DNA of 48,137 nucleotides from Chiloscyllium plagiosum. Its lineage: Eukaryota. Positions within the stretch are counted from its first letter, which is position 1, and the number at the start of each line of letters is the position of its first letter. The notes beneath the pieces were generated by a model. The model saw only the letters and a program-made list of their open reading frames with translations. It did not search any database and was not told the DNA's origin. Location: NCBI RefSeq assembly GCF_004010195.1, contig NC_057757.1:6520682-6568818 (forward strand), written 5' to 3'. Positions 10,182 to 45,514 of the stretch are shown in pieces. Made by a program: the position numbers and the translations under genes.

Positions 10182-10964
10182 ATGATCGGCAAGAAGAAGA
10201 GCGGCTTCCAGATCACCAGTGTCACCTCGGAGTACGAAGGCAGCACCGGCGGTGAAGGGCTGAGGGAGCCACCGGGCGGAGAGGCGGAGGCTGTGGTGAA
10301 CGGGGATCCGGGTGTGGGCCCCTCGGCCGACACCGAACTGCCGGGCAAGGACGGTCGGACTAAGCCGCCCCCGGCAACAGCGGGACAAGGCACCGCCGGC
10401 AGGGAGGTGCCAAAGGAGACCGGGACAATGGCAACGGGGACGCTCCCCGGGACCAGGTCCCCCCCGCCGCCGGCCCCCAGCCCCTGCGGCTCCCGCTTCC
10501 GGGTGGTGAAGCTGGACCACGGGCTGGGCGAGCCGTATCGCCGCGGCCGGTGGACCTGCGTGGACCTGTACGTGGACCGTGAGCTGGACGCCCACGGGCT
10601 GGCCAAGGTGCTGGCCGGGAGCCGCCACGTCAACTCGCTGGACTCTCACCCGGAGCTGGGCGCCCTGCTGGCTCACCGGGCGGTCAGCCAGCTCCGGCCC
10701 CGGCCCCACGCCCCCAAGAGCCAGGGCTCCCCCCTGGGCGAGAGCCTGCCGGCACCGGGCACCGACACCCTGCACGTGCTCCTGCAGGCGGCCCGCACCC
10801 TCAGCCTGGACTCTCCGCCTGCTCCCCAGGAGAAAGGGGACCCAGCGGCGACGCCTCACCCTGCCAACCAGCCACACGGAGCCAAGGCTGGTGCCAGGGA
10901 GACGACCTCGCCCCCGACGAATGTGAAGCATCCCTCCTCGGGAGATCAGGGAGGACTGAGGAAG
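10182..10964 (+). CDS. TSC22D4: TSC22 domain family protein 4, first coding exon
   Basis: ATG at 10182 starts MIGKKKSGFQITSVTSEYEG (TSC22 long-isoform motif 1), followed by SRFRVVKLDHGLGEPYRRGRWTCVDLY (motif 2). Motif 1 at the extreme N-terminus and the GLGEPYRRGRWTCVD text match TSC22D4. The exon ends at AAG|GCAAGT (GC donor, phase 0). Confidence 0.9.
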
Positions 10965-11313
10965 GCAAGTACAGGCCGGCCACACGCGAGGGGGTGGAGG
11001 GGGAAGAGGCTGCCGCATTCTGGTTAGAAACTATCAGGGCGTGGGCCTCCCTGGCTGTGCCCAGCGTTTATTACCCCGTCCTGGAAACGAAAGCTCCTGG
11101 GAGTCCAAGCAGCAACCATGCGGAGAGAGAGAGAGCTAACTGTCTTGTGATGCTTCAGCAGGACTGACGATGAAGAGTCATCTGGCCTCAAAACATTAGC
11201 TTGCTGTCTGTCTCGCTCGCTCGCTCTCTCTCCATGGATGCTGCCTGTCCTGCTCTGGTTCCCAGCAGGGTTTGTTCTCCAGCATCTGCAGTAATCTGCT
11301 CCCACACTTATTA

Positions 11314-11506
11314 GGCGAAAGTGAGGACTGCAGATGCTGGGGATCAGAGTCGAGAGTGTTGTGCTGGACAAGCGCAGCAGGTCAGGCAGCAGCCGAGAAG
11401 CAGGAGAATCGACGTTGCCTGATGAAGGGCTTGTTCCCGAAACGGCGATTCTCCTGCCCCTCGGATGCTGCCTGACCTGCTTGCTTTTCCAGCACCGCAC
11501 TCTCGA
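11314..11506. mobile_element. Hairpin-family short element (Penelope-like derived)
   Basis: Inverted arms around cctgatgaagggcttgttcccgaaacg, with imperfect flanking direct repeat ctc(c/g)caca(c/t)ttatta. Confidence 0.7.
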
Positions 11507-12024
11507 CTCGCACATTTATTACCCCCGTTTCTCATTGTCCCGTCCTTGAGAGTGGGTGGTGAGCTGCCTACTTGACCTGCTGCAGTCCACGTTCTGACCC
11601 AGCGACACTGAACTCACGGCCGATCTATTTCCAAGTCAGGAGGGTGAGCAGCTTGGTGGGGGGAGTTTGCAGGAGGGTGATGCTCCCATGTATCTGTAGC
11701 CCTTGTCCTTCCAGATGGTAGACATCACAGGTTTGGAAGATGGTGTCTCGGGTGCCTTGGTGAGTCTCTGCAGTGCATCTTGTAGCTGGTACACACTCCT
11801 GTGATTGGGCATCGGTAGTGGAGGGAGTGTGAATGTTTATGGTGGTGAGTGGGGTACAGATCAGACTGGACTGCTTTATCCTGCTGGTGTTGGGCTCCTC
11901 GAGTGTGTACGTCTCCTCCCTCAGTGCAGGTCTTTGGCAATACTTTGTGCTGTCCGATCCCCAGACTCACTGACTGGCGATGTTTGGAGTATTCCCCTGT
12001 CTCCCAGCCCTCCCCTCTTGCCCA

Positions 12025-12490
12025 GGGCACGATGCCTCAGTGGTTAGCACTGCTGCCGTACAGCGCCAGGGATCTGGGTTCGATTCCAACCTCTGGTGGC
12101 TGCTCATGTGGAGTTTGCACATTCTCCCCATGGCTGTATGGGTTTCCTCCCGCAATCCAAGGGGTGATTGGGCGTGCTAAATTGCCCCATAGTGCCCAGG
12201 GATGTGCAGGTTAGGGTGGATTGGCCGTGCTAAATTACCCATAGTGTTCGGGGATGTGCAGGTTAGGGTGGATTGGCCATGCTAAATTACCCATAGTGTC
12301 CAGGGATGTGCAGGTTAGGGTGGATTGGCCGTGATAGATTACCCATAGTGTCCAGGAGTGTGCACGTTAAGTGCATGAGTCTGGGGAAATGTAAAGTAAT
12401 AGGGTTCTGGGTGGGTTCCTCTTTGGAAGGTCAGTGTGGACTTGTTGGGCCGAAGGGCCTGCTTCCACACTGTTGGGGTTCTGTGATGTA
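12025..12490 (+). mobile_element. HE1-type tRNA-derived SINE with internal ~52-bp tandem expansion
   Basis: A/B-box head (cagtggttagcactgc...gggttcgattcc), repeated gattggccgtgctaaattacccatagtgtccagggatgtgcaggttagggtg, and LINE-like tail gggccgaagggcctg. Confidence 0.88.
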
Positions 12491-13441
12491 GCAGCTTGCT
12501 GCAATGGAGCGTTTGCCCGGCCTGTTTCAGGTGAGCCGGTGCCTGTCCTGACTGAGCCCCCATGAGTGCCGTGCAGTCTGTTCAAACACACTCGTGTCTG
12601 TCATTGTGTCTACTCATAATATTTACACTGGGCTCCTGCCAAAAGGTTCCTGCGCAGCGGAGCTCATCGGGATGTTCGTGCCCTGTCGGGAGTGGGGGAT
12701 GGAAGGTTTGGAGAAGGAAGCAGCGCACTGTGTTATCATCAAACCCCAGTCAGCTGGTTCACATGGAGGAAGAGTTTCCCCTGTCTTCCCTTCCGTTAGA
12801 CCGAGGATTTGCACTGTGCTGCTATTCCCTCACAAATGACAGAAGGCTGAGCCACAAGAGGAGGCCATTCACCCCAGCCAGGCTGTGCCAGCTCTCTGAA
12901 AGGGCTATCCCGCCCTCTCCCGGACTTCCCTCTGGACAGATTTGTCTGATTTCTGCGCCTGTACCCTCCTTGGAAACGTATCAGACCTCTCATACAGCCT
13001 TCCAGACCGTGTGCACATCCAGCTTATGGATCGTTTGCATCAATCTTCCCTGTGTTCCCCGTCTGTCCTGCCTGTGGGAAGTTCCCCCCCACCCCACCCC
13101 CGTCCAGTCTTGATGAAACCCCTCATGGGTTTGAGCACCTGTACTCAATGCCACGCCCCTGACCCCTGACCCTTCTCTGCTGTAAGGAGCGTGATCCCAT
13201 TTACCTCTACACCAATGGAAGCCCCTCGTCCCTGGTCGTCTTCTGATAAAGCTTCTCTGCACCTTACCCAGAGGCCTGGATGCCTTTCCTAAGGTGTGGT
13301 AGGGAGCACGGTGTTTCAGCCATTCACCCCACCCCCCCGTGGGGTTTCAGCGCGGCCTCCTCCCCTTCGGGACGTTGTTGTGATCGGGCCCCGTCACTGC
13401 ATGTGGTGGTGAAGTGACTCCTGTCTCTCCCTCCCCACCAG

Positions 13442-13623
13442 TTTCCTGAGCCTCAATCCACATCGGTGTCGCCGGTCCCCCCTGCCCAGGACGGCAGCCC
13501 TTCCCGAAAGCTCCGTGCCTCGGAGGCCAGCGCTGCCGGCTCTCTCCGGTTCGTCTCGCCCATGCAGACGCTGGCCAAGTCCATGCTGTCGGTCGGAACG
13601 CAGCCGGACAGTGACGACGACAG
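13442..13623 (+). CDS. TSC22D4: TSC22D4 second coding exon
   Basis: Acceptor ctgtctctccctccccaccag|TTT, phase 0. Encodes FPEPQSTSVSPVPP...MQTLAKSMLSVGTQPDSDDD(S), resembling TSC22D4 LAHSMLAISGHLDSDDDS. Donor GACAG|gtacgc is phase 2, the usual junction before the TSC-box exons. Confidence 0.85.
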
Positions 13624-13676
13624 GTACGCCTGGCCACCTGGGGTGGGAGGGGAGGTGAGGCGACAGGAGGTGCAGA

Positions 13677-13840
13677 ACCCCAATCCCCCACAGAGGGAGG
13701 GTCGGGGGGGGGGAGCGACAGACCCACGAGACCCCCAATCCCCCACGGAGGGAGGGTGGGGAGTGACAGGCCCGCGAGACCCCCAATCCCCTACAGAGGG
13801 AGGGTGGGGAGCGACAGGCCTGTGAGACCCCCAATCCCGT
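13677..13840. repeat. 48-bp tandem repeat, ~3.3 copies
   Basis: acccccaatcccccacggagggagggtggggagtgacaggcccgcgag units at 13731 and 13779 plus flanking copies. Confidence 0.85.
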
Positions 13841-14929
13841 GGAAGGCTGCGATACGTCACCCCCAAGTAATGCTCCCCGTGTGGGGGGAATGGGGGCCGG
13901 GCTGGCTGTGTGGGCAGGGGGATGGTCCTGCCATCTGNNNNNNNNNNNNNNNNNNNNNNNNNNNNNNNNNNNNNNNNNNNNNNNNNNGGGGATAATTCAT
14001 CGGAACCATTGCAGCACTCATTCAGATTCAGGCATCAGTAGCCCCCCCCACCTCCGTTTTCCCCCCCCGCCCACCCACAAAGACGTGAATGAGTCAGTGG
14101 ATCTGCTGCTAGTGATGAGTACTTTGACTTCTCAGGACCCTCGGTAACAGTGTCACTGTTTTGTGATCAGGAAGCAAATGGTTTTAATTACAGAACTGTT
14201 ATCGTGCAGGAGGAGGCTATTCGGCCCCACCATCTATGTGCTCGCTATTCAAACCAGCATGAATACCCGGTGCCCGTCCCCCTCCCATTTCCCCCATAGC
14301 CCTTCTCACAGTTAACTAGCCAAATAATCATCTCTTGAATGCTTCACTTGAACCTGCCTCCTCCCCATGTCCAGCTGGTGTGTTCCAGATCCTAACTACT
14401 TATTGTGGCGGGGCAGGTAGCAAACTATTTCTATCATCACCCTTGCTTTGTCTGTCCATCACTTTATAAATCTGGTCCCTTTCCCAAGTGGGTGCAGTTG
14501 CTCTCTATCACCACCCATTCCTGGGTTTGAAAGCCTCGATCAGAACTCCCTCTTTCTGTCGAAGGGGAACAGTCCCAATTCCTTCACCAACGCAGACAGA
14601 AGTTGCTGGAAAAGCTCAGTGGGTCTGGCTGTCTCCGCGTGGAGAAAGCAGAATGACCGTTTCAGGTCCAGTGACCCTCATTCACTCCATCCTCATCTGT
14701 GAAGTTTCTCCTTCCTGGGACCATTGTGGTATGTCGCTTCTGTGCACTCTTTCCCCAATGCATTCGCATTCCCCCAACGTGGCACCTACGACTGTACGCA
14801 GTACTCCGGCTGAGTACTTTGTTAGGAGATGTCTGAACTTTCGTGTGTGATCAGCCACAGTGGACGTGTGCTGTGCTGCTGATGGTGTCCCCCTAGATGT
14901 GGAGAGACGCTGCCGATAAGTGGGAATGT

Positions 14930-15285
14930 GCTTCCTCGGCACTTCAAATGCACAGCTACGCAACATACTGCAGCAACTCGCCAAGGCTGCTTGGACAGCA
15001 CCTCCCAACCCACCCCCGTGTCTACCAGGAAGGACAAGGGCAGCAGATGCATGGGAACACCATGGTCTGCATGTCACCTCTCCTAGCCACGTACCTTCCT
15101 AACCTCGGAAACATATCTCTGTTCCTTCAGCTGGGTCAAAATCCAGGAAGTTGCCAGTCCTGTATACAGCGTGTGTTCCTTCTTTCACCACATGGACTGC
15201 AGCATTTCAAGGAGGCAGCTCTCGCTGCTGCTACCACCTCATGGGCAAGACATACTGACCCAGCCAGCATTGCCCATGAACGCAG
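14930..15285 (+). mobile_element. Old L2/CR1-group LINE 3' fragment
   Basis: aggacaagggcagcagatgcatgggaacaccat...ttcaaggaggcagctc. Related copies at ~11530-11830 (-), ~41435-41620 (+) and ~42895-43185 (+). Confidence 0.6.
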
Positions 15286-15469
15286 TACAGAAATAAGTCC
15301 TATTGCTTGTAGAGAGCTCCTCCGACCCAATGTGATGGCAGGTGGTCTGTGGGTGGGGGTGGTGCGGGGTGCGTGATGAATACCTGAGGCAAAATTGTGA
15401 TGGTGGTGTCTGCTGTTTGAATTCAGGAAAGAAATAGTCCCTTCTGCCAAACCCAAGGATTGAACATAG

Positions 15470-15765
15470 GGGTGGCATGGTGATTCAGTGGTTAGCATTG
15501 CTGCCTCACGGCGCCAGGGACCCAGGTTCGATTCCAGACTCGGGCGACTGTCTGTGTGGAGTTTGCACATTCTCCCCGTGTCTGTGTGGGTTTGCTCCGG
15601 TTTCCTCCCACAGTCCAAAAATGTGCAGGTTAGGTGAATTGGCCATAGTGTTAAGTAAGGGGTAAATGTAGGGGAGTGGGTCTGGGTGGGTTGCTCTTCG
15701 GAGGGTTGGTGTGGACTTGTTGGGCCGAAGGGCCTGTTTCACACTGTAGGGAATCTAATCTAAAC
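15470..15765 (+). mobile_element. HE1-type SINE
   Basis: Full head, body and tail. Confidence 0.9.
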
Positions 15766-16384
15766 AAAACGTTACTGAAGTGTGGTTGGCTGTTGTTACT
15801 GGACTGAAGGGATCCACAAGGCAATGGATAAACAGGGGTGAGCCGTCCCAATTGGCTGAAGGAGAAAGCCAGCCGCCAAGTTGGCATTGCAGTGCAGCTT
15901 CCAGAGTGGGAACTGAACCCGTGACCTTTGAGGTCACTCGGAGTTAGCAATCAGCCAAGGCTGCTGCCTTTGTGCAGCCTTCAAGGGGCAGGGAGGGCTG
16001 CTGCCAGGGAGGTGAAATCAGCACAACCCAGGGCCTCTGTGAAGCTGGTGCTATCTTGCTGCACTAGGGCAGGCTCTCTGTTCTTTGCTGTGTGTACACA
16101 AGATAGTGAATCAGCTCGTGACCAAACAGCCAGCTCTACGTTCGGCTTGGCACAGACCTCACAGAGCGCTGGGTGACGTGAGCAGTGCGGCCTCTGGGGG
16201 CCATCACCATCACGTGCTGCAGAACCTTGGCTCGATGCAGAGCTGCTTAGACAGTGGCTCAGGGTGTCGGGTATCAAACAATCCCATCACTTGGCGGGCA
16301 GGTGGCCCAGAGCTTGCTTGGGAGGGAAGGATGGGTTTCAAGGAGACGAGAGAGGCAGGGAGGTCTGAGGAAGGGAAATCCAGA

Positions 16385-35600: not shown

Positions 35601-38046
35601 TGACTGTACTGTCACACAGCGAGTAACCTTTAACCTGCTGAATAAACACTGACTGTACTGTCTCACAGCGTGTAACCCTTACCCTGCTGAATATACACTG
35701 ACTGTACTATTACACAGCGAGTAATCCTTACCCTACTGAATATACACTGACTGTACTATTACACAGCGAGTAACCCTTACCCTGCTGAATACATGCTGAC
35801 TGTACTGTCAGACAGCGAGTAACCCTTTCGCTACTGAATATACACTGACTGTACTGTCAGACAGCGAGTAACCCTTACCCTGCTGAATAAACACAGACTG
35901 TACAGTCTCACAGCGTGTAATCCTTACCCTGCTGAATATACAGTGTGTACTGTCAGACAGCGAGTAACCCTTACCCTGCAGAATATACACTGACTGTACT
36001 GTTACACTGCGAGTAACCCTAACCCTGCTGAATAAATACTGACTCTGCTGTCACACAGCGAGTAACCCTTACCCTAGTGAATATACACTGACTATACTGT
36101 CACACAGAGTGTAACCCTTACCCAGCTGAATCTACACTGGCTCTACTGTCACTCAGCGAGTAATCCTTACCCTGCTGAATAAACACTCACTATAATGTCA
36201 CACAGCGAGTAACCCTTACTCTGCTGAATATACACTGACTGTACTGTTACACTGCGAGTAACCCTAACCCTGCTGAATAAATACTGACTCCAATGTCACA
36301 CAGCGAGTAATCCTTACCCTACTGAACATACACTGACTCTACTGTCACACAGCGAGTAACTCTTACCCGACTGAATATACACTGACTCTACTTTCACACA
36401 GCGAGTAACCCTTACCCTGCTGAATATACACTACCTGTACTGTCACACAGAGTGTAACCCTTACCCAGCTGAATATACACTGACTGTACTGTCACACAGC
36501 GTGTAACCCTTACCCTGCTGAATATACACTGACTGTACTATTACACAGCGAGTAACCCTTATCCTGCTGAATATACACTGACTATACTATCAGACAGCGA
36601 GTAACCCTTACCCTGCTGAATATACACTGACTGTACTGTTACACAGCGATTAACCCTTACCCTGCTGAATAAACACTGACTGTACTGTCACTCAGCGAGT
36701 AACCCTGACCCTGCTGATTATACACTGACTGAACTGTCACGCAGCGAGTAAACCTTAGCCTGCTGAATATACAGAGTGTACTGTCACACAGCGAGTAACC
36801 CTTACCCTGCTGAATATACACTGATTGTACTGTCAGGCAGTGAGTAACCCTTACCCTGCTGAATATACACTGACTGTACTGTCACGCAGCGAGTAACCCT
36901 TAGCCTGCTGAATATACAGAGTGTACTGTCAGACAGCGAGTAACCCTTACCCTGCTGAATATACACTGATTGTACTGTCAGGCAGCGAGTAACCCTTACC
37001 CTGCTAAACAAACGCTGACTGCACTGTCACACAGCGAGTAGTCCTAACCCTGCTGAATAAATACTGACCGTACTGTAACACAACGAGTAACCCTTATCCT
37101 GCTGAATAAACACTGACTGTACTATAACACAGCGAGTAACCCTTACCCTGCTGAATACATGCTGACTGTACTGTCAGACAGCGAGTAACCCTTACACTCC
37201 TGAATATACACTGACTGTCCTGTCACACAGCATGTAACCCTTATCCTGCTGAATATACACTGACTGAACTGAAACTCAGCGAATAACCCTTACCCTGCTG
37301 AATATACACTGACTGTATTGTCACACAGCATGTAACCATTACCATGCTGAATATACACTGACTGAACTGTCACTCAGCGAGTAACCCTTACCCTGCTGAA
37401 TATACACTGACTGTACTGTCACACAGCGTGTAACCAATACCATGCTGAATATACACTGACTGTACTGTTACACAGCGAGTAACCCTTACCCTGCTGAATA
37501 AACAAGAGTGTATTGTCACACAGCGAGTAACCCTTACCCTGCTGAATATACACTGACTGTACTGTCTCACAGCGTGTAACCCTTACCCTCCTGAATATAC
37601 ACTGACTGTACTATTACACAGCGAGTAACCCTTACCCAGCTGAATATACACTGACTCTACTGTCACACAGCAAGTAACCCTTACCCTGCTGAATATACAC
37701 TGCCTGTACTGTCACACAGCGAGTAACCCTTACCCTGCTAAATATACACTGACTCTACTGTCACCCAGCGAGTAACCCTTACCCTACTGAATATACACTG
37801 ACTGTACTGTTACACAGCGATTAACCCTTACCCTGCTGAATAAACACTGACTGTACTGTCACTCAGCGAGTAACCCTGACCCTGCTGAATATACACTGAC
37901 TGTACTGTTACACAGCGATTAACCCTGACCCTGCTGAATATACACAGACTCTACTGTCACACAGCGAGTAACCCTTATCCTACTGAATATACACCGGCTC
38001 TACTGTCACTCAACGAGTAACCCTTACCCTGCTGAATATACACTGC
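32645..38046. repeat. 49-bp minisatellite, ~110 copies, running into an assembly gap
   Basis: Unit cacagcgagtaacccttaccctgctgaatatacactgactgtactgtca (e.g. cagcgag at 33314 and 33363), with occasional shorter variants and a small internal gap at 33195-33238. Confidence 0.97.
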
Positions 38047-38546: not shown

Positions 38547-38668
38547 GACAAGGGGTATATGTGAGTGACGGGAGTATATGTGAGTGACGGGGGTATCTGT
38601 GAGGGGGTGTTGGTGGAATGTGCCTAGTATTTCCTGAAGCCCTCTGTGCACTGGAACATTGCCAACAG

Positions 38669-38914
38669 GTGGAGTTCTACTTCCTGTCTCAGTACGTCTC
38701 TGCCACTGACACACCTTTCCGGCACATTCTCCATGGACGGGGTGACCACACACTGGAAGCCCTTTACAGACATTTCCAACTGCTTAAGGACAAGCCGAGC
38801 AAGTTTGACGAGAAGAAGTTCCGGAAGCAGTTGGCCCTGGTGACATGGACCCTGCAGGGAGCTGCCAACGCTCTGAGTGGAGACGTCTGGAACATTGGTA
38901 ACAACAGCTTCTAG
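38669..38914 (+). CDS. TFR2: Transferrin receptor 2, last coding exon (C-terminal helical/dimerisation domain)
   Basis: cag|GTG GAG TTC TAC starts [32 protein letters not shown]...[31 protein letters not shown]. Diagnostic residues are TFR2-type ([26 protein letters not shown]) rather than TFR1-type (VEYHFLSPY, GSGSHTL, TWTIQG, VWDI). Confidence 0.93.
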
Positions 38915-39044
38915 AACGTCCAGATCATCAACACCGTTGACTCATTCTTCACTGACCCTTCACTGAGAGAGGGAGTGTGCTGTGGGCCTCCTCAAACCCT
39001 GCCAGACTTGGTTCAATCACCACTCGTTCGAGGCTTCCATGCAG

Positions 39045-39240
39045 CATCTCTCCCCTCCTTTCTGTCCTCTGCTCATCCTTCACTCCTCTCCCCTCCTTCT
39101 CATCTCTTCCTCTCCTCACCCTTCCCTCCTTCTCCCCTCTCCATCCTCACCTCTCCTCCACCAGTCTCCTCTTCTCCCACTCTTCCTTCACACACTCGCT
39201 CCCTCCGAACCTCTCTCTTCCTCCTCCAACCCTTCCCAGG
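39045..39240. repeat. CT-rich low-complexity tract in proximal TFR2 3' region
   Basis: Near-continuous pyrimidines on the + strand. Confidence 0.8.
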
Positions 39241-40393
39241 ATAACCAGGGGCGGAGGGGGTGAGTAAAGAGGACTCCCCGTTCCCATGTCTTTCTGATCA
39301 ACACCAGATGGCATGTCAGTTCATGTCCCACGCATCTTTATCTCTGTTTCCGACTCCCCACCCCACATCACTTTCTCCCCATAATTCCCTCCTCTATCTT
39401 TCCATCTTACTCTTCTGTTTTTCCCTCTTTCGCTGTCCGCCTCCTTTTTCTCCACAAGATGGAATTGTCTGCACATTAACCGTTTCACTTTGAATTCCCG
39501 CCGTTTAACCTGTGCTATTGCGTCAGGATCAGTAACTTCGAGTTCAGTTCAACATTGGACCATCAATCTCTGGTTGGGAGTTCACGTCCCTCCCTGACTG
39601 AGGTGCAAAATTGATTTAACTTTTAAAAAATCCAATAATTTTCAGTTTAAATTTCAAATCTCTATTGCCTAAGGTTAGATTCTCCAACACAGATGGGGGT
39701 GTTGGAGGGAGGTTCATTCTTGACTCTGGTCCTGTGATAACTTTTATGCCCCCTTCACGATCTGGTGGTGAGTAATCTGAGGTCATCGTGACAAAGTTAA
39801 ATATGAATGGTACCGAAACAGGCCATTTGGCCCACCCGCTCCATATGTTTCTGTTCCATATGGACCTCCACTCCCATTCCTCCCTTTACATGTTGTACAA
39901 ATATAGGAAATTAGGAGGAGCGGGCCTCAAGTCTGCTCCAATTTGAGAGAGCTTTGAAGATTCACAATCCTCAGAAGTGTCCCCTTGACCATCAGAGATA
40001 GGAGCAGAAGGCCATTCAGCCCATCGGATGTGTGCTGCCATTCAGAGATCACTGCTGACCTGATAATCCTCAGGTTCTGAAACAAGGTCTTCTATGCCTC
40101 AGTCAAACTGCCTCTTAGCCTTCCAGCAGAGTTTCACCCCCATCACCTTCTTATTCCTTTCTCCCTCCTGTTTATCCAGTTTTCTCTTGACTGCTTTGAC
40201 ACTATATTTGCCTCAACCACTTTGAGGTCGCAAGTTCCCCATTCTCACCGTTCATATACCACATAAGGAGATTTCTCTTCACTACCACAGTGACTTTCTG
40301 GTGTTGATGATCTCTATGTATCCGCAGTCTAATCTCTGCAAGAGTCTGTCTCATGAAATTTTCCAACATAGTTTTGAGGACATCTTATGATGG

Positions 40394-40671
40394 TCATGAT
40401 TGGAGACGCTGGTGTTGGACTGGGGTGTTGAAAATCCCACAATACCAGGTTATAGTCCAACAGGTTTATTTGGAAACACTAGCTTTCAGAGCGCTGCCCC
40501 TTCATTAGGTGGTTGTGGAGAATAAGATTGTAAGACATGGAATTTATTGCAAATTTATTCTGTATCTTACGATCTTATACTCCACAAGCACCTGACGTCG
40601 GAGCAGCGCTCCGACAGCTAGTGCTTCCAAATAAACCTGTTGGACTCTAACCTGGTATTGGGTGATTTTTA
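40394..40671. mobile_element. Second family of Penelope-like inverted-repeat element
   Basis: Arms ccaggttatagtccaacaggtttatttggaa... and ...ttccaaataaacctgttggactctaacctgg, with flanking direct repeat atcttat(g/a)atgg. A related fragment lies at ~28690-28795. Confidence 0.7.
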
Positions 40672-40893
40672 ATCTTATAATGGCTTCTCTTTTCTAGTGA
40701 AAATAATGTAGTTGTGTTCAGTCTTAAGTCAATACCTCTGTCATGTTCTTTTCCAGAAAGTAACTTAAAGATGGGAATTTAAAGTGAATAGATGAATGGC
40801 TAAAAAATGTCACGGCAAATGAAATTAGATTGTGTGTTTGTCCATCCATATCTAGTGCTGGTGTCTAGACTCCGGTTGTCATCAATGATTGTT

Positions 40894-40926
40894 TAATTTA
40901 TCAGGGACAGTGATCACTATAAATTA
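40894..40926 (+). promoter_or_regulatory. Iron-responsive element 1 (TFRC IRE-A-like)
   Basis: TAATTTAT-C-AGGGA-CAGTGA-TCACT-ATAAATTA: 8-bp lower stem, bulged C, CAGUGN loop, and an upper stem with one G.A mismatch. Confidence 0.75.
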
Positions 40927-40944
40927 TTTTTGTAATATATTGTT

Positions 40945-40973
40945 AATTATCGGAAGCAGTGCCTTCCATAATT
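40945..40973 (+). promoter_or_regulatory. Iron-responsive element 2 (TFRC IRE-B-like, canonical)
   Basis: AATTAT-C-GGAAG-CAGTGC-CTTCC-ATAATT: perfect lower stem, C bulge, 5-bp upper stem and CAGUGN loop. Confidence 0.95.
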
Positions 40974-40977
40974 CCAA

Positions 40978-40988
40978 CAGTTATACTG
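40978..40988 (+). promoter_or_regulatory. Non-IRE triloop hairpin immediately 3' of IRE 2
   Basis: CAGT-TAT-ACTG. The same text follows IRE-B in human TFRC as I recall it (GACAGTTATACTGTC). Confidence 0.5.
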
Positions 40989-41069
40989 GCTTTGAATGGA
41001 AAAAGCATCTTCTGTTTGTTAGAAGCCAGGTGGTAGAGGCAAGTTGTTGGCAATGCTCAGGTTAGTCAA

Positions 41070-41240
41070 GCTGCCATTTTGTAGTTTTCCCTGTCTTCAA
41101 TGGCAGCCATTTTGTAGTGCTCCCTATCTTCACTGGCAGCCATTTGCATTGGCCCCATGTTGGCTGGCCACTTGCAGCGTCCTCTGTCTTCATCAGCAAT
41201 CTGCTATCTTCAATGGCAGCCATTTGCAGAGCCATCTGTC
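41070..41240. repeat. Degenerate ~33-bp repeat with GCCATTT cores
   Basis: gccattt at 41073, 41106, 41139 and 41219 within cttcaatggcagccattt-type units. Confidence 0.6.
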
Positions 41241-41845
41241 TTTGTGTGGACATCTGCCATACCTCTATCCCGCCATCATTATGATTCCTGTGTGGAATCT
41301 CCTTGGGGATTGCAGGCTGTCTGGTAGGATTTTTTAAATGCTTTCCTGAAGTGTAGACTGATCCTTTAATTTGTTTTGAAAGCAAAAGCTCTGAGGAGTT
41401 ATTGGTGCTAAGTCAAACATCTGAAATCCAATGCGGGAACACCACTGCCTGCAAGTTCCCCTCCATTGCCCATCCTGACTTGGAAATATATTGCCATTCC
41501 TTCAGTGTCACTGGGTTAAAATCTTGGAATTCCTTCCTCAATGGAACTGCGCATGTTCCAACACTTAAGTGAAGTGCAGGGGTTCAAGAAAGCAGTTCAC
41601 CTCCCACCTCCTGGACAGCTAAAGATCGACATGGTGCTTATGATCCCTTTAGAAATGTATCCCTTGCAACGCCCAACTCCCCATCTACACCCTAAATCTG
41701 ACTGCTCTTGAAATAGAGACAAACAAATGGCAGCAGAGCATTGCCAATAAGAGAGACATCATTGTACGAGGGGCACATCAGCATTGGGATCCTCTAGTAC
41801 GAATACTGCCATTAATCTATCAGCTATTGATAAAGAAAACGTGTT

Positions 41846-41874
41846 AATTATCGGGAACAGTGCTTCTCATAGTT
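41846..41874 (+). promoter_or_regulatory. Iron-responsive element 3 (TFRC IRE-C/E-like)
   Basis: AATTAT-C-GGGAA-CAGTGC-TTCTC-ATAGTT: fully paired with two G.U pairs, and extendable by GTGTT/AGCAC. Confidence 0.92.
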
Positions 41875-42226
41875 CAGCACATTGCTTACTTGTTGAGGCC
41901 TAGTTATTTACCCCCACTGACCTGAGTCTGTTGTGTACCTGTTTGTTTATGCTTTGGTTGGTTTGATGTGCCAGTCTAATGAGAGGGTCAACCTGTAACC
42001 ACATTGGCCATACCCACTCTCTTCCTTTCAAGCGTAATATGCTCTGGATCGAGGGGTGCAGAGTTGGGGGAAGATGGCACTGTACCAGTAACTGAGGATG
42101 GTGGGGGGGGAAGAAAAGGGGTGTGTGTGTGTTTTCTTTTTAAAACCATCTGTCAGAGCTTTGTGCTGTGCTGCTCAGACTGGCCCAGAGTCACCATAAA
42201 ATGCTTCAATGTATCACAACTGGAGA

Positions 42227-42232
42227 ATTAAA
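42227..42232 (+). terminator. Candidate distal poly(A) signal for TFR2 (ATTAAA)
   Basis: PAS-type hexamer after the last IRE, followed ~30 nt later by a G/T-rich stretch. Confidence 0.35.
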
Positions 42233-42314
42233 AATTTAGCCAAACTACAAAGCTGCCTTGGGTTTAGTTCCTACCTAACTCTGTTGCTCCAACCAGAGAC
42301 ATCAGCAAAGCTGA

Positions 42315-42730
42315 TACAGGTCATTCTGCTTGAACGTGTGATTCATTAATGCGAATACCCGATTGATGAATTATAGAGTTATAGAGATGTACAATGTGGA
42401 AACAGACCCTTCGGTCCAACCCGTCCATGCCAACCAGATATCCCAACCCTAATCTAGTCCCACCTGCCAGCACCCGGCCCATATCCCTCCAAACCCTTCC
42501 TATTCATATACCCATCCAAATGCCTGTTAAATGTTGCAATTGTACCAGCCTCCACCACTTCCTCTGGCAGCTCATTCCATTGTTTCTAAAGTGCCAACTT
42601 TTAAAACACGTGTTGGCTGTGACAGGACTGCATCACCAACACTTTAAGCGCTGTTTCTAAAGCACAATTTTTTTTAATAACGGGGGTCACACAAGAACGT
42701 AACTATGTCATTACAGAAAAACTACCTGTA
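42315..42730. mobile_element. Possible Tc1/mariner-pogo MITE interrupted by the LINE tail
   Basis: TA-caggt...acctg-TA ends with imperfect inverted repeats. Confidence 0.4.
42372..42580 (-). mobile_element. HER1/CR1 LINE 3' tail
   Basis: Family tail text on the minus strand. Confidence 0.88.
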
Positions 42731-43364
42731 GGTGTGAGTGAGCCAAAAAACACTGAATGGTTCTCAGCTAGTGCTTATAGGAGAGAGAGTTTTAAATTGG
42801 CTCATCTGGTCTCTTACATTGCACTGTCAGTCAATCACTATTTCTGCTGACAAGTATTGGTCCACTCTCTCCACCACCCATCTCAGTAGCAGCAGCAGCA
42901 TGTACCATCTACAAGATTCACTGCAACACCTTTCTAACTTCTAATCTCATCACAGAGAGACTAGGGCAGCAGATACATGGGAACACCATTTGCAAGTTCC
43001 TCTCCCACCATCCTGACTTGGAAATTTATTAGCCGTTCCTGCAGTGTTGCTGGGTCAGAATCCTGGAGCTCCCTCCCTAACGACACTGTCCCCAAACAGA
43101 CGGCAGCGATTTAACGCAGCAGTTCACTGCCACCTTCTCCATTACCGATAGGCAACAGTTGCTGGCCTCGACATTAATGCCCATATGCTGTGTACAAACA
43201 AAGTGGGCGTGGTGGCCAATGTGGCCCATGCCAAATCTGGCAAGGATTTGGTGCTCTGAGCTAGGCCCAGCTTTCATTCTGCAAGTCAGCCTGACCTGCA
43301 GAACAAGGGAAGAGAAAGGGGGGGGGATAAAGAGGTGTAGGTTAAGCACATGATCAAGGTGGTA

Positions 43365-43630
43365 AAAACAATGACTGCAGATGCTGGAAACCAGATTCTG
43401 GATCAGTGGTGCTGGAAGAGCACAGCAATTCAGGCAGCATCCGAGGACAGGCAAAATCGACGTTTCGGGCAAACGCCCTTCATCAGGAATGAGACAGGGA
43501 GCCTCCTGGGTGGAGAGATAAATGGGATGTTAATTCTCCTGCTCGTCGGATGCTGCCTAACCGGCTGTGTTTTTTCAGCACCACTCTAATCTCAACTCTG
43601 ATCTCTGGCATCTGCAGCACCCACTTTCGC
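43365..43630 (-). mobile_element. Penelope-like hairpin-family element(s) with intact hammerhead-like core
   Basis: Minus strand CTGATGA-A-GGGC-gttt-GCCC-GAAAC-GTC at 43459-43486, with family text gcagatgctgg...gctggaagagcacagc...ggcagcatccgagg. Confidence 0.65.
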
Positions 43631-44079
43631 CTGGTGGGTTTGAATCCTGTCAAATGGCACATGGTGGAATCTGAAATCAGTACAAGTCTGGAATCAAGGG
43701 TATAATGATGACCATGAATCCACTACCCAGTGTCGGATGAACCCACCTGGTCCACTAATGTCCTTTGGGGAAGGAAACTGCCATTATTACCTGCTCCTAC
43801 CTACATTGTGGGTGGCTCTTAAACTCCTCTCTGGGCAATTAATGCTGTCCTCAGCCCTGTTACCCTCATGGCATGAAGGAATTGAATTTTAAAGGGCATT
43901 CCAGAGGCCCATACTCATGCCTTGGGGACACAGGTTAAAATACCACCATGACAACTGGTGAAATTTAAGTTAACAAATCAATCTAGCCAGCTAGTTACAG
44001 AAACACATGGCTGAGACACGGGAACTTGGAACGCAACAAAGAGAAAAATCAAACAGGATTTAAAACAATAGCTGACGCC

Positions 44080-44085
44080 TTTATT
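44080..44085 (-). terminator. Poly(A) signal AATAAA of an unidentified convergent gene
   Basis: The minus strand reads ...ttgtatttgcactttgcaaaaaaaaatagaacttgtacaaatgtaaag...gtgttttAATAAAggcgtc followed by a T/GT-rich tract, a typical mRNA 3' end. Confidence 0.6.
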
Positions 44086-45514
44086 AAAACACCACGTGGG
44101 GCCCAAAGGGGCATAAGTACATTTGGTCGGACTTTACATTTGTACAAGTTCTATTTTTTTTTTGCAAAGTGCAAATACAATTCTTTTTTTAAAATTAAAA
44201 AAAATCTGTTGTGAGTTTACACAGGACTTTCATTCATTCTGACATCCAAATCCCAATTAATGTGCACAGATCTTCAAAAAAAAAATGAAAACACACGTGC
44301 GCGCACACACACACACACACACACGCAGAAAACCCAGAATATATATTAAAAAGTTACAGCGCCCCAGTCGGTGACAACCCCTATCATTATTTCGAGCACA
44401 TGCACACATGCAGCAGCAATCTGGGAATTTCAGGCTGGAGAGCGGCAACCAGAGGTCAACTCTGCAAACCGTTGTTGGAGGAGATTATGTCAGCTTCTTG
44501 CTGCACTGAGAAGGTGGACAAGGCCTAGAGCACAACCTCCCAATGAGACCCTGACAACAGCACATAGCCATGGTGCACAGAGGTCTCCTCCCATGGGGAC
44601 CCGGTTCCTCCCCTTTCCCCAAACATCCCTACCCAGCCCACAAGACAACTAAAAACACTCTGCTACCAGTCCTGCTAACCCACTACCCTATTGAAACAGA
44701 CAAAGTCCGTAGCTGGATGGGGCAAAGATGATTAGCTGATTAAGACCCACCCTAGCAACCCATGCTACTTTCCCTCATCCTAACCAGTCCTAGAGAGTTG
44801 GTTGCTGCAGTAGCTTCTCCCTCAGACTCCGTGGTACTGAGAGAACACTGATGGGTCAGGATTAACCATCGCTTAGTTGGAGAAATTCCTTCAATTTGAG
44901 GGAGGATTAGTCAGGCAAAACATTCCACACCAAGGCTCCCAGAACAGGGACAGCACAGGGTAAAGCTTCCTCTCTCTCTGTTTCAGCATAGGATTGGTGT
45001 TCAGCTGCAGTACACACCACATGTGAATATCCTACACTGGGCCCCACAGGGTGACCAGTTGCCTAAAACATCAGTGAAGGACAAGATGAGGCTGGAAATG
45101 TGCCACATCAAGACAGTCTTGGTCAACTCCGAGCTGCCCCCCACTCCACTATCACTATCTCTGAACTTACCCAAACAAAATCAAGAACAGCTCCTTTTCT
45201 CATGTTCAATATTCCCAAAGCCCCCTCCCTCCTCCACCCCCAACCCAAAGGCATCTCCTACTACACATTTTAACCTCTCCCACTTTCCCCAGTCGAAGGT
45301 CACCCATTCACTCCAGTTACTCCCACCTTAGGCCAGTCAAGTGCCCCACCTATAGGGGCCAGTCTCCGAAAGAGATAAAGTGCTCAAGTACCGACCAATT
45401 GCCGGACCACTCGCATGAGGAACCTTCCCTTATTGCAATGCGTGCTTTTCCAAAAGTAGAGAACTACGGAAATCGCAGACTCTCTCCAGTTGGGGTAGTG
45501 TCTAGACTTTATAA

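Follow-up and report, generated by a model that had tools for sequence, protein, structure and literature searches.

In the 48,137-nt stretch of Chiloscyllium plagiosum DNA analyzed here (the window), the last coding exon of TFR2 is followed by a block in which IRE A, IRE B, and stem-loops I and III of the TFRC 3' UTR have homologues at the same spacing, and in which stem-loop I has lost its two outer base pairs. On our best reading, which rests on comparison of sequences, the module of IREs and decay hairpins would predate the TFR1/TFR2 duplication and would have been partly dismantled in shark TFR2. We give roughly even chances to the full account, namely, that a shortened stem-loop I behind three intact-looking IREs is likely a heritage from before the duplication and is predicted to be a weak Roquin site.

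Host gene and transcript

The preliminary description had compared this region with TFRC as if the gene were its orthologue, and that premise has to be replaced. The reading frame that closes at 38914 is the last exon of a transferrin receptor, its best protein matches are chondrichthyan TFR2 proteins, and comparison with catshark gave 72/81 identical residues for TFR2 and 38/81 for TFR1. In a tree of 20 rows, picked by us from several hundred matches and with the window gene represented by 81 residues, the exon was grouped in a chondrichthyan TFR2 clade (100/100) nested in TFR2 (100/100), while a separate catshark TFR1 was placed in the TFR1 clade (96.7/97), apart from shark TFR2, and a hagfish sequence fell outside both clades. 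TFRC orthology of the window gene is rejected by this placement. Since the host gene is TFR2, the hairpin is of more interest than it would be in a TFRC orthologue. The UTRs of mammalian TFR2, the orthologous gene, are described in PMC4019842 as having no IRE and no regulation by IRP, and TFR2 is presented there as an IRE-less paralogue with regulation at the protein level, whereas three Rfam-grade IREs lie behind the shark gene.

Only one TFR2 exon was found in the window, and it sits behind a gap of 500 N, from which point on (38547) the genomic sequence has no gaps. A tandem repeat with a 49-bp unit in 21 copies (37000 to 38045) reaches this assembly gap just upstream of the exon. A Chiloscyllium plagiosum protein model matches the window in four blocks at 98 to 100%, and TSC22D4 exons lie upstream of the TFR2 exon; in human, TFR2 lies near TSC22D4. 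The NCBI model P0001, in a gappy stretch of the assembly, joins the 5' exons of TSC22D4 to the last TFR2 exon (10182 to 16273 plus 38669 to 38914). This fusion is probably an annotation artefact: neither further TFR2 exons nor the TSC box (searched for as a peptide motif) turned up in the window, and in spliced contigs a normal TFR2 exon precedes this one.

Transcript contigs were taken from runs of related organisms, whose RNA label is a guess. At least half of 12 sampled words were contained in 20 of the 24 listed runs (5 organism labels, 8 studies), and four of the 24 were compared over 38610 to 42360, with X10 as the most distant organism among those compared. Contigs of X2 and X5 extend before 38668 into the previous TFR2 exon, reading NRMYNDKIMR (catshark, NRIYNDKIMR), and are therefore derived from spliced transcripts. 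Downstream, contig pieces span 38668 to 40432 and 40525 to 41911 in X5 and 38668 to 39303, 39274 to 40401, 40635 to 41499, and 41479 to 41893 in X10. Depth after 40677 is similar to that before in all three contig runs (X2, X5, and X10) and drops near 41890 to 41910, X2 going on at a lower level. The pieces are separated by a palindromic repeat (82% inverted self-match, with a hairpin of -157 kcal/mol and very high repeat depth) that no single contig bridges, as seen in the X5 break between 40432 and 40525, so that we infer, rather than read, the junction between the IRE block and TFR2 mRNA. Given the spliced TFR2 contigs and the similar depth up to ∼41890, a 3-kb TFR2 3' UTR carrying all three IREs, assembled here from separate contigs, is likely.

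Several features of this UTR deserve mention in their own right. Seven A>G differences occur at 40569 to 40620 in the X2 and X5 contigs, six of them at paired positions of the palindrome hairpin, a cluster that looks like A-to-I editing of a plus-strand UTR. The sole AATAAA of the putative UTR, at 40630 to 40635 within the palindromic repeat, precedes every IRE, and its use could yield a short isoform without them; poly(A)-tailed reads at this signal are repeat-like and not assignable to the locus. Neither AATAAA nor ATTAAA was found in 41801 to 42000, near the predicted UTR end, and raw single-cell reads of X21 (about 2 in 100 sampled) fell nearly all on repeats and were uninformative as to strand and 3' end.

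The IRE block and the hairpin behind IRE 2

TABLE 1 Features of the TFR2 region, in coordinates of the window
Feature	Position	Strand	Basis or remark
Last coding exon of TFR2	38669..38914	+	81 codons plus TAG; AG acceptor ends at 38668
Putative 3' UTR, ∼3.0 kb, end approximate	38915..41911	+	Contig pieces, depth drop
Palindromic repeat element, 245 nt, inside UTR; RNA contigs break there	40428..40672	.	Self-match
IRE 1, IRE A-like	40895..40925	+	Rfam 32.5 bits; canonical CAGUG loop
IRE 2, IRE B-like, canonical	40944..40974	+	Rfam IRE_II 41.4 bits
TFRC stem-loop I homologue	40976..40990	+	4-bp stem, UAU triloop at 40978-40988
Damaged TFRC stem-loop III homologue	41001..41016	+	3/13 changed, closing pair broken
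IRE 3, near putative 3' end	41845..41875	+	Rfam 31.9 bits
Another 4-bp inverted repeat with a YAU triloop, immediately after IRE 3	41876..41886	+	Predicted sequestered in an extension of the IRE 3 stem

For comparison, an IRE pattern scan recovered four loci (L001 to L004) in metagenome contigs and none in genome contigs or viral contigs. L001 carries bird TFR1 coding exons, while L002 to L004 have the same cluster and no coding sequence, so that their TFR1 label rests on UTR layout.

All three shark IREs lie on the plus strand above the gathering score of Rfam IRE_II (RF02253), a family that does not take in decay hairpins, and each has the CAGUGN loop, 5-bp upper stem, bulged C, and lower stem, with the exception of one G-A mismatch in the fold of the IRE 1 upper stem. 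Three IREs that appear intact, and for which IRP binding is predicted, stand behind shark TFR2; a fourth was not detected in 38900 to 44500 (Rfam, E up to 10), nor were IREs C and D in 41014 to 41900. IRE 1 matches IRE A at 26/31 positions in L001 and 25/31 in L002. Its canonical loop is unlike that of IRE A in both of these loci; in the ancestor, IRE A may have served as an ordinary IRP site. IRE 2 shows 0/29 differences from IRE B of the bird locus and 0 to 2/29 across L001 to L003. IRE 3 ties between IRE E (26, 24, and 25 of 31) and IRE B (24, 26, and 25 of 31); it may have arisen from IRE 2 by local duplication. A 13-nt 5' flank is common to IREs 2 and 3. In both (regions 40940 to 40980 and 41841 to 41880), the lower stem can gain 5 further pairs by drawing on the 5' arm of the YAU mini-hairpin that follows.

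Behind IRE 2, a 2-nt linker leads to ACAGTTATACTG at 40977 to 40988. As the preliminary description had proposed, CAGU-UAU-ACUG is the minimum-energy fold here, in both 19-nt and 38-nt contexts; its triloop lies at 40982 to 40984 and is a YRN loop of the best type (YAU), and the stem is indeed of only 4 bp. The element lies as far from the IRE loop as TFRC stem-loop I does and shares 13 of 15 bases with it (binomial p ∼4e-6), and its 11-nt core is identical in all 11 positions to L001 to L003. In addition, C25, G48, and C54 of the numbering published by Rupani and Connell (PMC4931119) map to 40957 C, 40980 G, and 40986 C. By the match, the fixed offset, and these three positions, the hairpin is a homologue of TFRC stem-loop I, which has been described as a Roquin-dependent decay element (PMC8058555, PMC4931119), and a chance hairpin is rejected by the homology at a fixed position. 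The TFRC hairpin given in the preliminary description proved to be the one listed in Supplementary Table 6 of Braun 2018 and present in L001 to L003; the published TFRC CDE has arms gacagt and actgtc around a tat loop, exact in five mammals, with a folding probability of 0.69 (PMC6294493). One further locus, L004 (oriented, 15 to 29), has a TFRC-type stem-loop I with a one-sided A-to-G change in which pairing is kept as G-U.

The proposed alignment with vertebrate TFRC UTRs likewise bore out the relationship: 40889 to 41016 aligned with bird TFRC at 78% over 137 columns (E 1e-23), and the score of the 46 nt behind IRE 2 was reached by 1 to 2 of 18,320 windows in a scan that included the site itself. 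As a structure, the hairpin is unremarkable (z -0.94, with 38 of 200 shuffles folding as well). Four-base-pair YRY hairpins number 86 on both strands of the window (0.93 per kb), 10 of them with YAU loops, and since such hairpins are common, structure alone proves nothing.

Compared with the TFRC 3' UTR, shark TFR2 has IRE A, IRE B, and stem-loops I and III in the same order (PMC4931119, PMC8058555), with the same spacing from IRE B to loop I, the same UAU triloop, and the same inner 4 bp (PMC4931119). The described TFRC arrangement differs in having five IREs and a 6-bp loop I against three IREs and a 4-bp loop I in the shark, where loop III is damaged, no loop V, IRE C, or IRE D was detected, and the block begins 1,981 nt past the TFR2 stop.

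State of the decay elements

It had been suggested that both the protective and the destabilizing halves of the switch may be ancestral and retained. Ancestry is probably correct; retention is overstated, because the stem is short of 6 to 8 bp with its outer pairs lost uncompensated, the fold is poor in wider context, loop III is damaged, and neither loop V nor IREs C and D could be located. The changes at 40976 and 40989 break the two outer pairs and reduce the stem from 6 to 4 bp, and the hairpin energy is -2.1 kcal/mol versus -6.6 kcal/mol for TFRC stem-loop I. In a five-row alignment of the shark with four TFRC-type loci, 96 of 99 cells pair when calculated on the MAFFT register, and all three unpaired cells are in the shark row, two of them being outer pairs of loop I and one the closing pair of loop III. 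No pair in this alignment is changed on both sides, and the differences of L001 from the other three TFRC rows in loops I and III keep pairing by G-U.

Change is unevenly distributed: between the shark and L001 to L003, the core differs at 0/11 positions while the linker differs at 2/2 and the spacer at 6 to 7/13, which is consistent with constraint on the core; the outer sites differ at 2/4 and loop III at 3/13. Loops I and III together thus have 5 changes in 28 positions, against 0/29 in IRE B. Moreover, folding of the hairpin depends on the context considered. Its mean closing-pair probability falls from 0.50 to 0.26 and 0.10 in 50-, 70-, and 100-nt folding windows, and the hairpin probability is 0.00 to 0.04 in those of at least 160 nt (range by folding window, 0.00 to 0.8), compared with closing-pair probabilities of 0.64 to 0.81 for three TFRC loci.

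The relaxed Roquin CDE consensus of Braun 2018 comprises a YRN triloop, best YAU, on a stem of 6 to 8 bp, and 5-bp stems are reported to be less active (PMC6294493). Like this element, the shark hairpin lies in a 3' region and carries a YAU triloop on a Watson-Crick stem, but with 4 bp it falls short of the 6 to 8 Watson-Crick pairs, has a low folding probability in wider context, and is accompanied by no intact partner CDE. The 6-bp rule is not absolute, since TFRC stem-loop III is described as functioning with 5 bp (PMC4931119). No YRN hairpin of at least 6 bp was found in 38915 to 41911.

The aaaagcatc tract noted earlier is present at 41001 to 41009 and turned out to be the damaged stem-loop III. 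Its loop is no longer YRY in the MAFFT register, and the relic (41000 to 41020) folds as a pentaloop of -1.3 kcal/mol; a second register (+2.2 to +3.7 kcal/mol), in which one pair is compensated and another mismatched, is unstable. An allele with a 4-base deletion in this relic was present at 695/1541 depth in X2. Stem-loop V was not found, the best match being 10/17, and the minimal instability element of TFRC (IREs B to D plus intact loops I, III, and V) is incomplete here. For the repeat behind IRE 3, the extension pair of the IRE has a probability of 1.0 and the hairpin pair one of 0.0.

Mechanism, alternatives, and significance

Bound IRP protects TFRC mRNA, and Roquin-1/2 are reported to act via loops I, III, and V (PMC8058555, PMC4931119, PMC6795136), which act additively (PMC4931119). 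In shark TFR2, whose mRNA would carry the IREs, IRP1/2 would bind them in cells short of iron; once IRP is released, the 4-bp UAU hairpin would recruit Roquin weakly, in competition with the extension of the IRE 2 stem. Because the loops are additive in TFRC and here loop I is short, loop III damaged, and loop V absent, the iron response of TFR2 is predicted to be much smaller than that of TFR1. Intact IRP binding combined with a weak single-loop Roquin response, and hence damped iron regulation, would be the outcome, a proposal that we judge to have an evenly balanced chance of being right. Shark TFR2 would then be an intermediate between the TFR1 switch and the IRE-less mammalian TFR2. Lineage-specific decay or transfer from TFR1 may also account for the block, the UTRs compared being those of shark TFR2 and TFRC-type loci.

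It is also conceivable, though rather unlikely, that the 4-bp hairpin functions in full as a Roquin element, possibly as a conformational switch toggled by IRP. Since the hairpin is isoenergetic with the lower-stem extension of IRE 2 (each -9.7 kcal/mol), IRP binding would hide it and release would expose it. The fully kept core with its best loop type is consistent with a working element, as are the confinement of both changes to the four outermost of 15 sites (p 0.057 under a uniform distribution), a hairpin probability that in a 51-nt context is higher at 28°C (0.78) than at 37°C (0.57), and the occurrence of a second YAU hairpin behind IRE 3 (background, 56 of 45,962 sites, for a motif picked after sighting). 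In X2, furthermore, the sole difference within 40815 to 41003 is at 40844, with none in IREs 1 and 2 or the hairpin. However, the stem is below the consensus length, the fold all but disappears in folding windows of at least 160 nt, forcing the core IRE fold lowers the hairpin inconsistently, the counterpart behind IRE 3 is predicted to be unformed, and the partner loops are damaged or absent. A bolder version, which we hold to be a little less probable still, is that shark TFR2, controlled by IRP and Roquin, keeps the switch from before the duplication in a form rewired to IRP-toggled, mutually exclusive folds, and that protein-level sensing came after its loss in later lineages.

Just as doubtful as a fully working element is the opposite view, that the hairpin is a dead relic, with selection acting on the IREs (perhaps including 40976 to 40980 as a stem extension) and neutral decay in the Roquin loops. 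Sharks evolve slowly, and that such a relic persists only through this slow evolution has a similarly small likelihood. The mostly damaging nature of the changes in loops I and III, set against the unchanged IRE B, fits a relic, as do the deletion allele in loop III, the lack of a longer YRN hairpin in the 3-kb UTR, and the example of CDC14A, whose 3' IRE is described as able to function without Roquin (PMC10351883). Neutral decay accords poorly with positions 40981 to 40988, that is, the loop and 3' arm, which lie outside the extension and have nevertheless stayed fully conserved since TFR1 and TFR2 separated, and with the fact that both changes spared the core.

Later copying of the block from shark TFR1 into the TFR2 locus, by gene conversion or insertion, would leave the switch undated; we consider it quite improbable. 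Identity of IRE 2 with bird TFRC IRE B over 29 nt would suit a transfer, and the TFR2 UTRs examined are from shark only, but the order, strand, and position behind the stop are all as in TFRC, the isolated third IRE 900 nt further on is as expected of a partly eroded cluster, and the canonical loop of IRE 1 is not that of TFRC IRE A. Least probable is that the block lies outside TFR2 mRNA, in a separate transcript or beyond polyadenylation at AATAAA 40630: the contig break at the palindrome, that signal, and the lack of a canonical one near 41900 would favor it, against the gap-free genomic sequence and the similar depth on both sides of 40677 in X2, X5, and X10.

What is new here is the TFR2 host gene and the degraded state, the hairpin itself being already known from TFRC. 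Among open-licence papers, no report of IREs in a non-mammalian TFR2 was found. Piccinelli and Samuelsson (2007) may mention an IRE in an amphibian TfR2; if so, TFR2 IREs are not wholly new, while three IREs together with decay-loop relics may be.

On the preferred reading of a partly dismantled heritage, a shark TFR2 with three IREs and two relics of Roquin loops likely places the origin of the whole switch ahead of the TFR1/TFR2 duplication in the jawed-vertebrate stem and suggests that decay loops were lost before IREs. Shark TFR2 thereby offers natural variants for two questions, namely, the minimum stem that Roquin accepts and the role of 3' IREs that are accompanied by weak Roquin loops.
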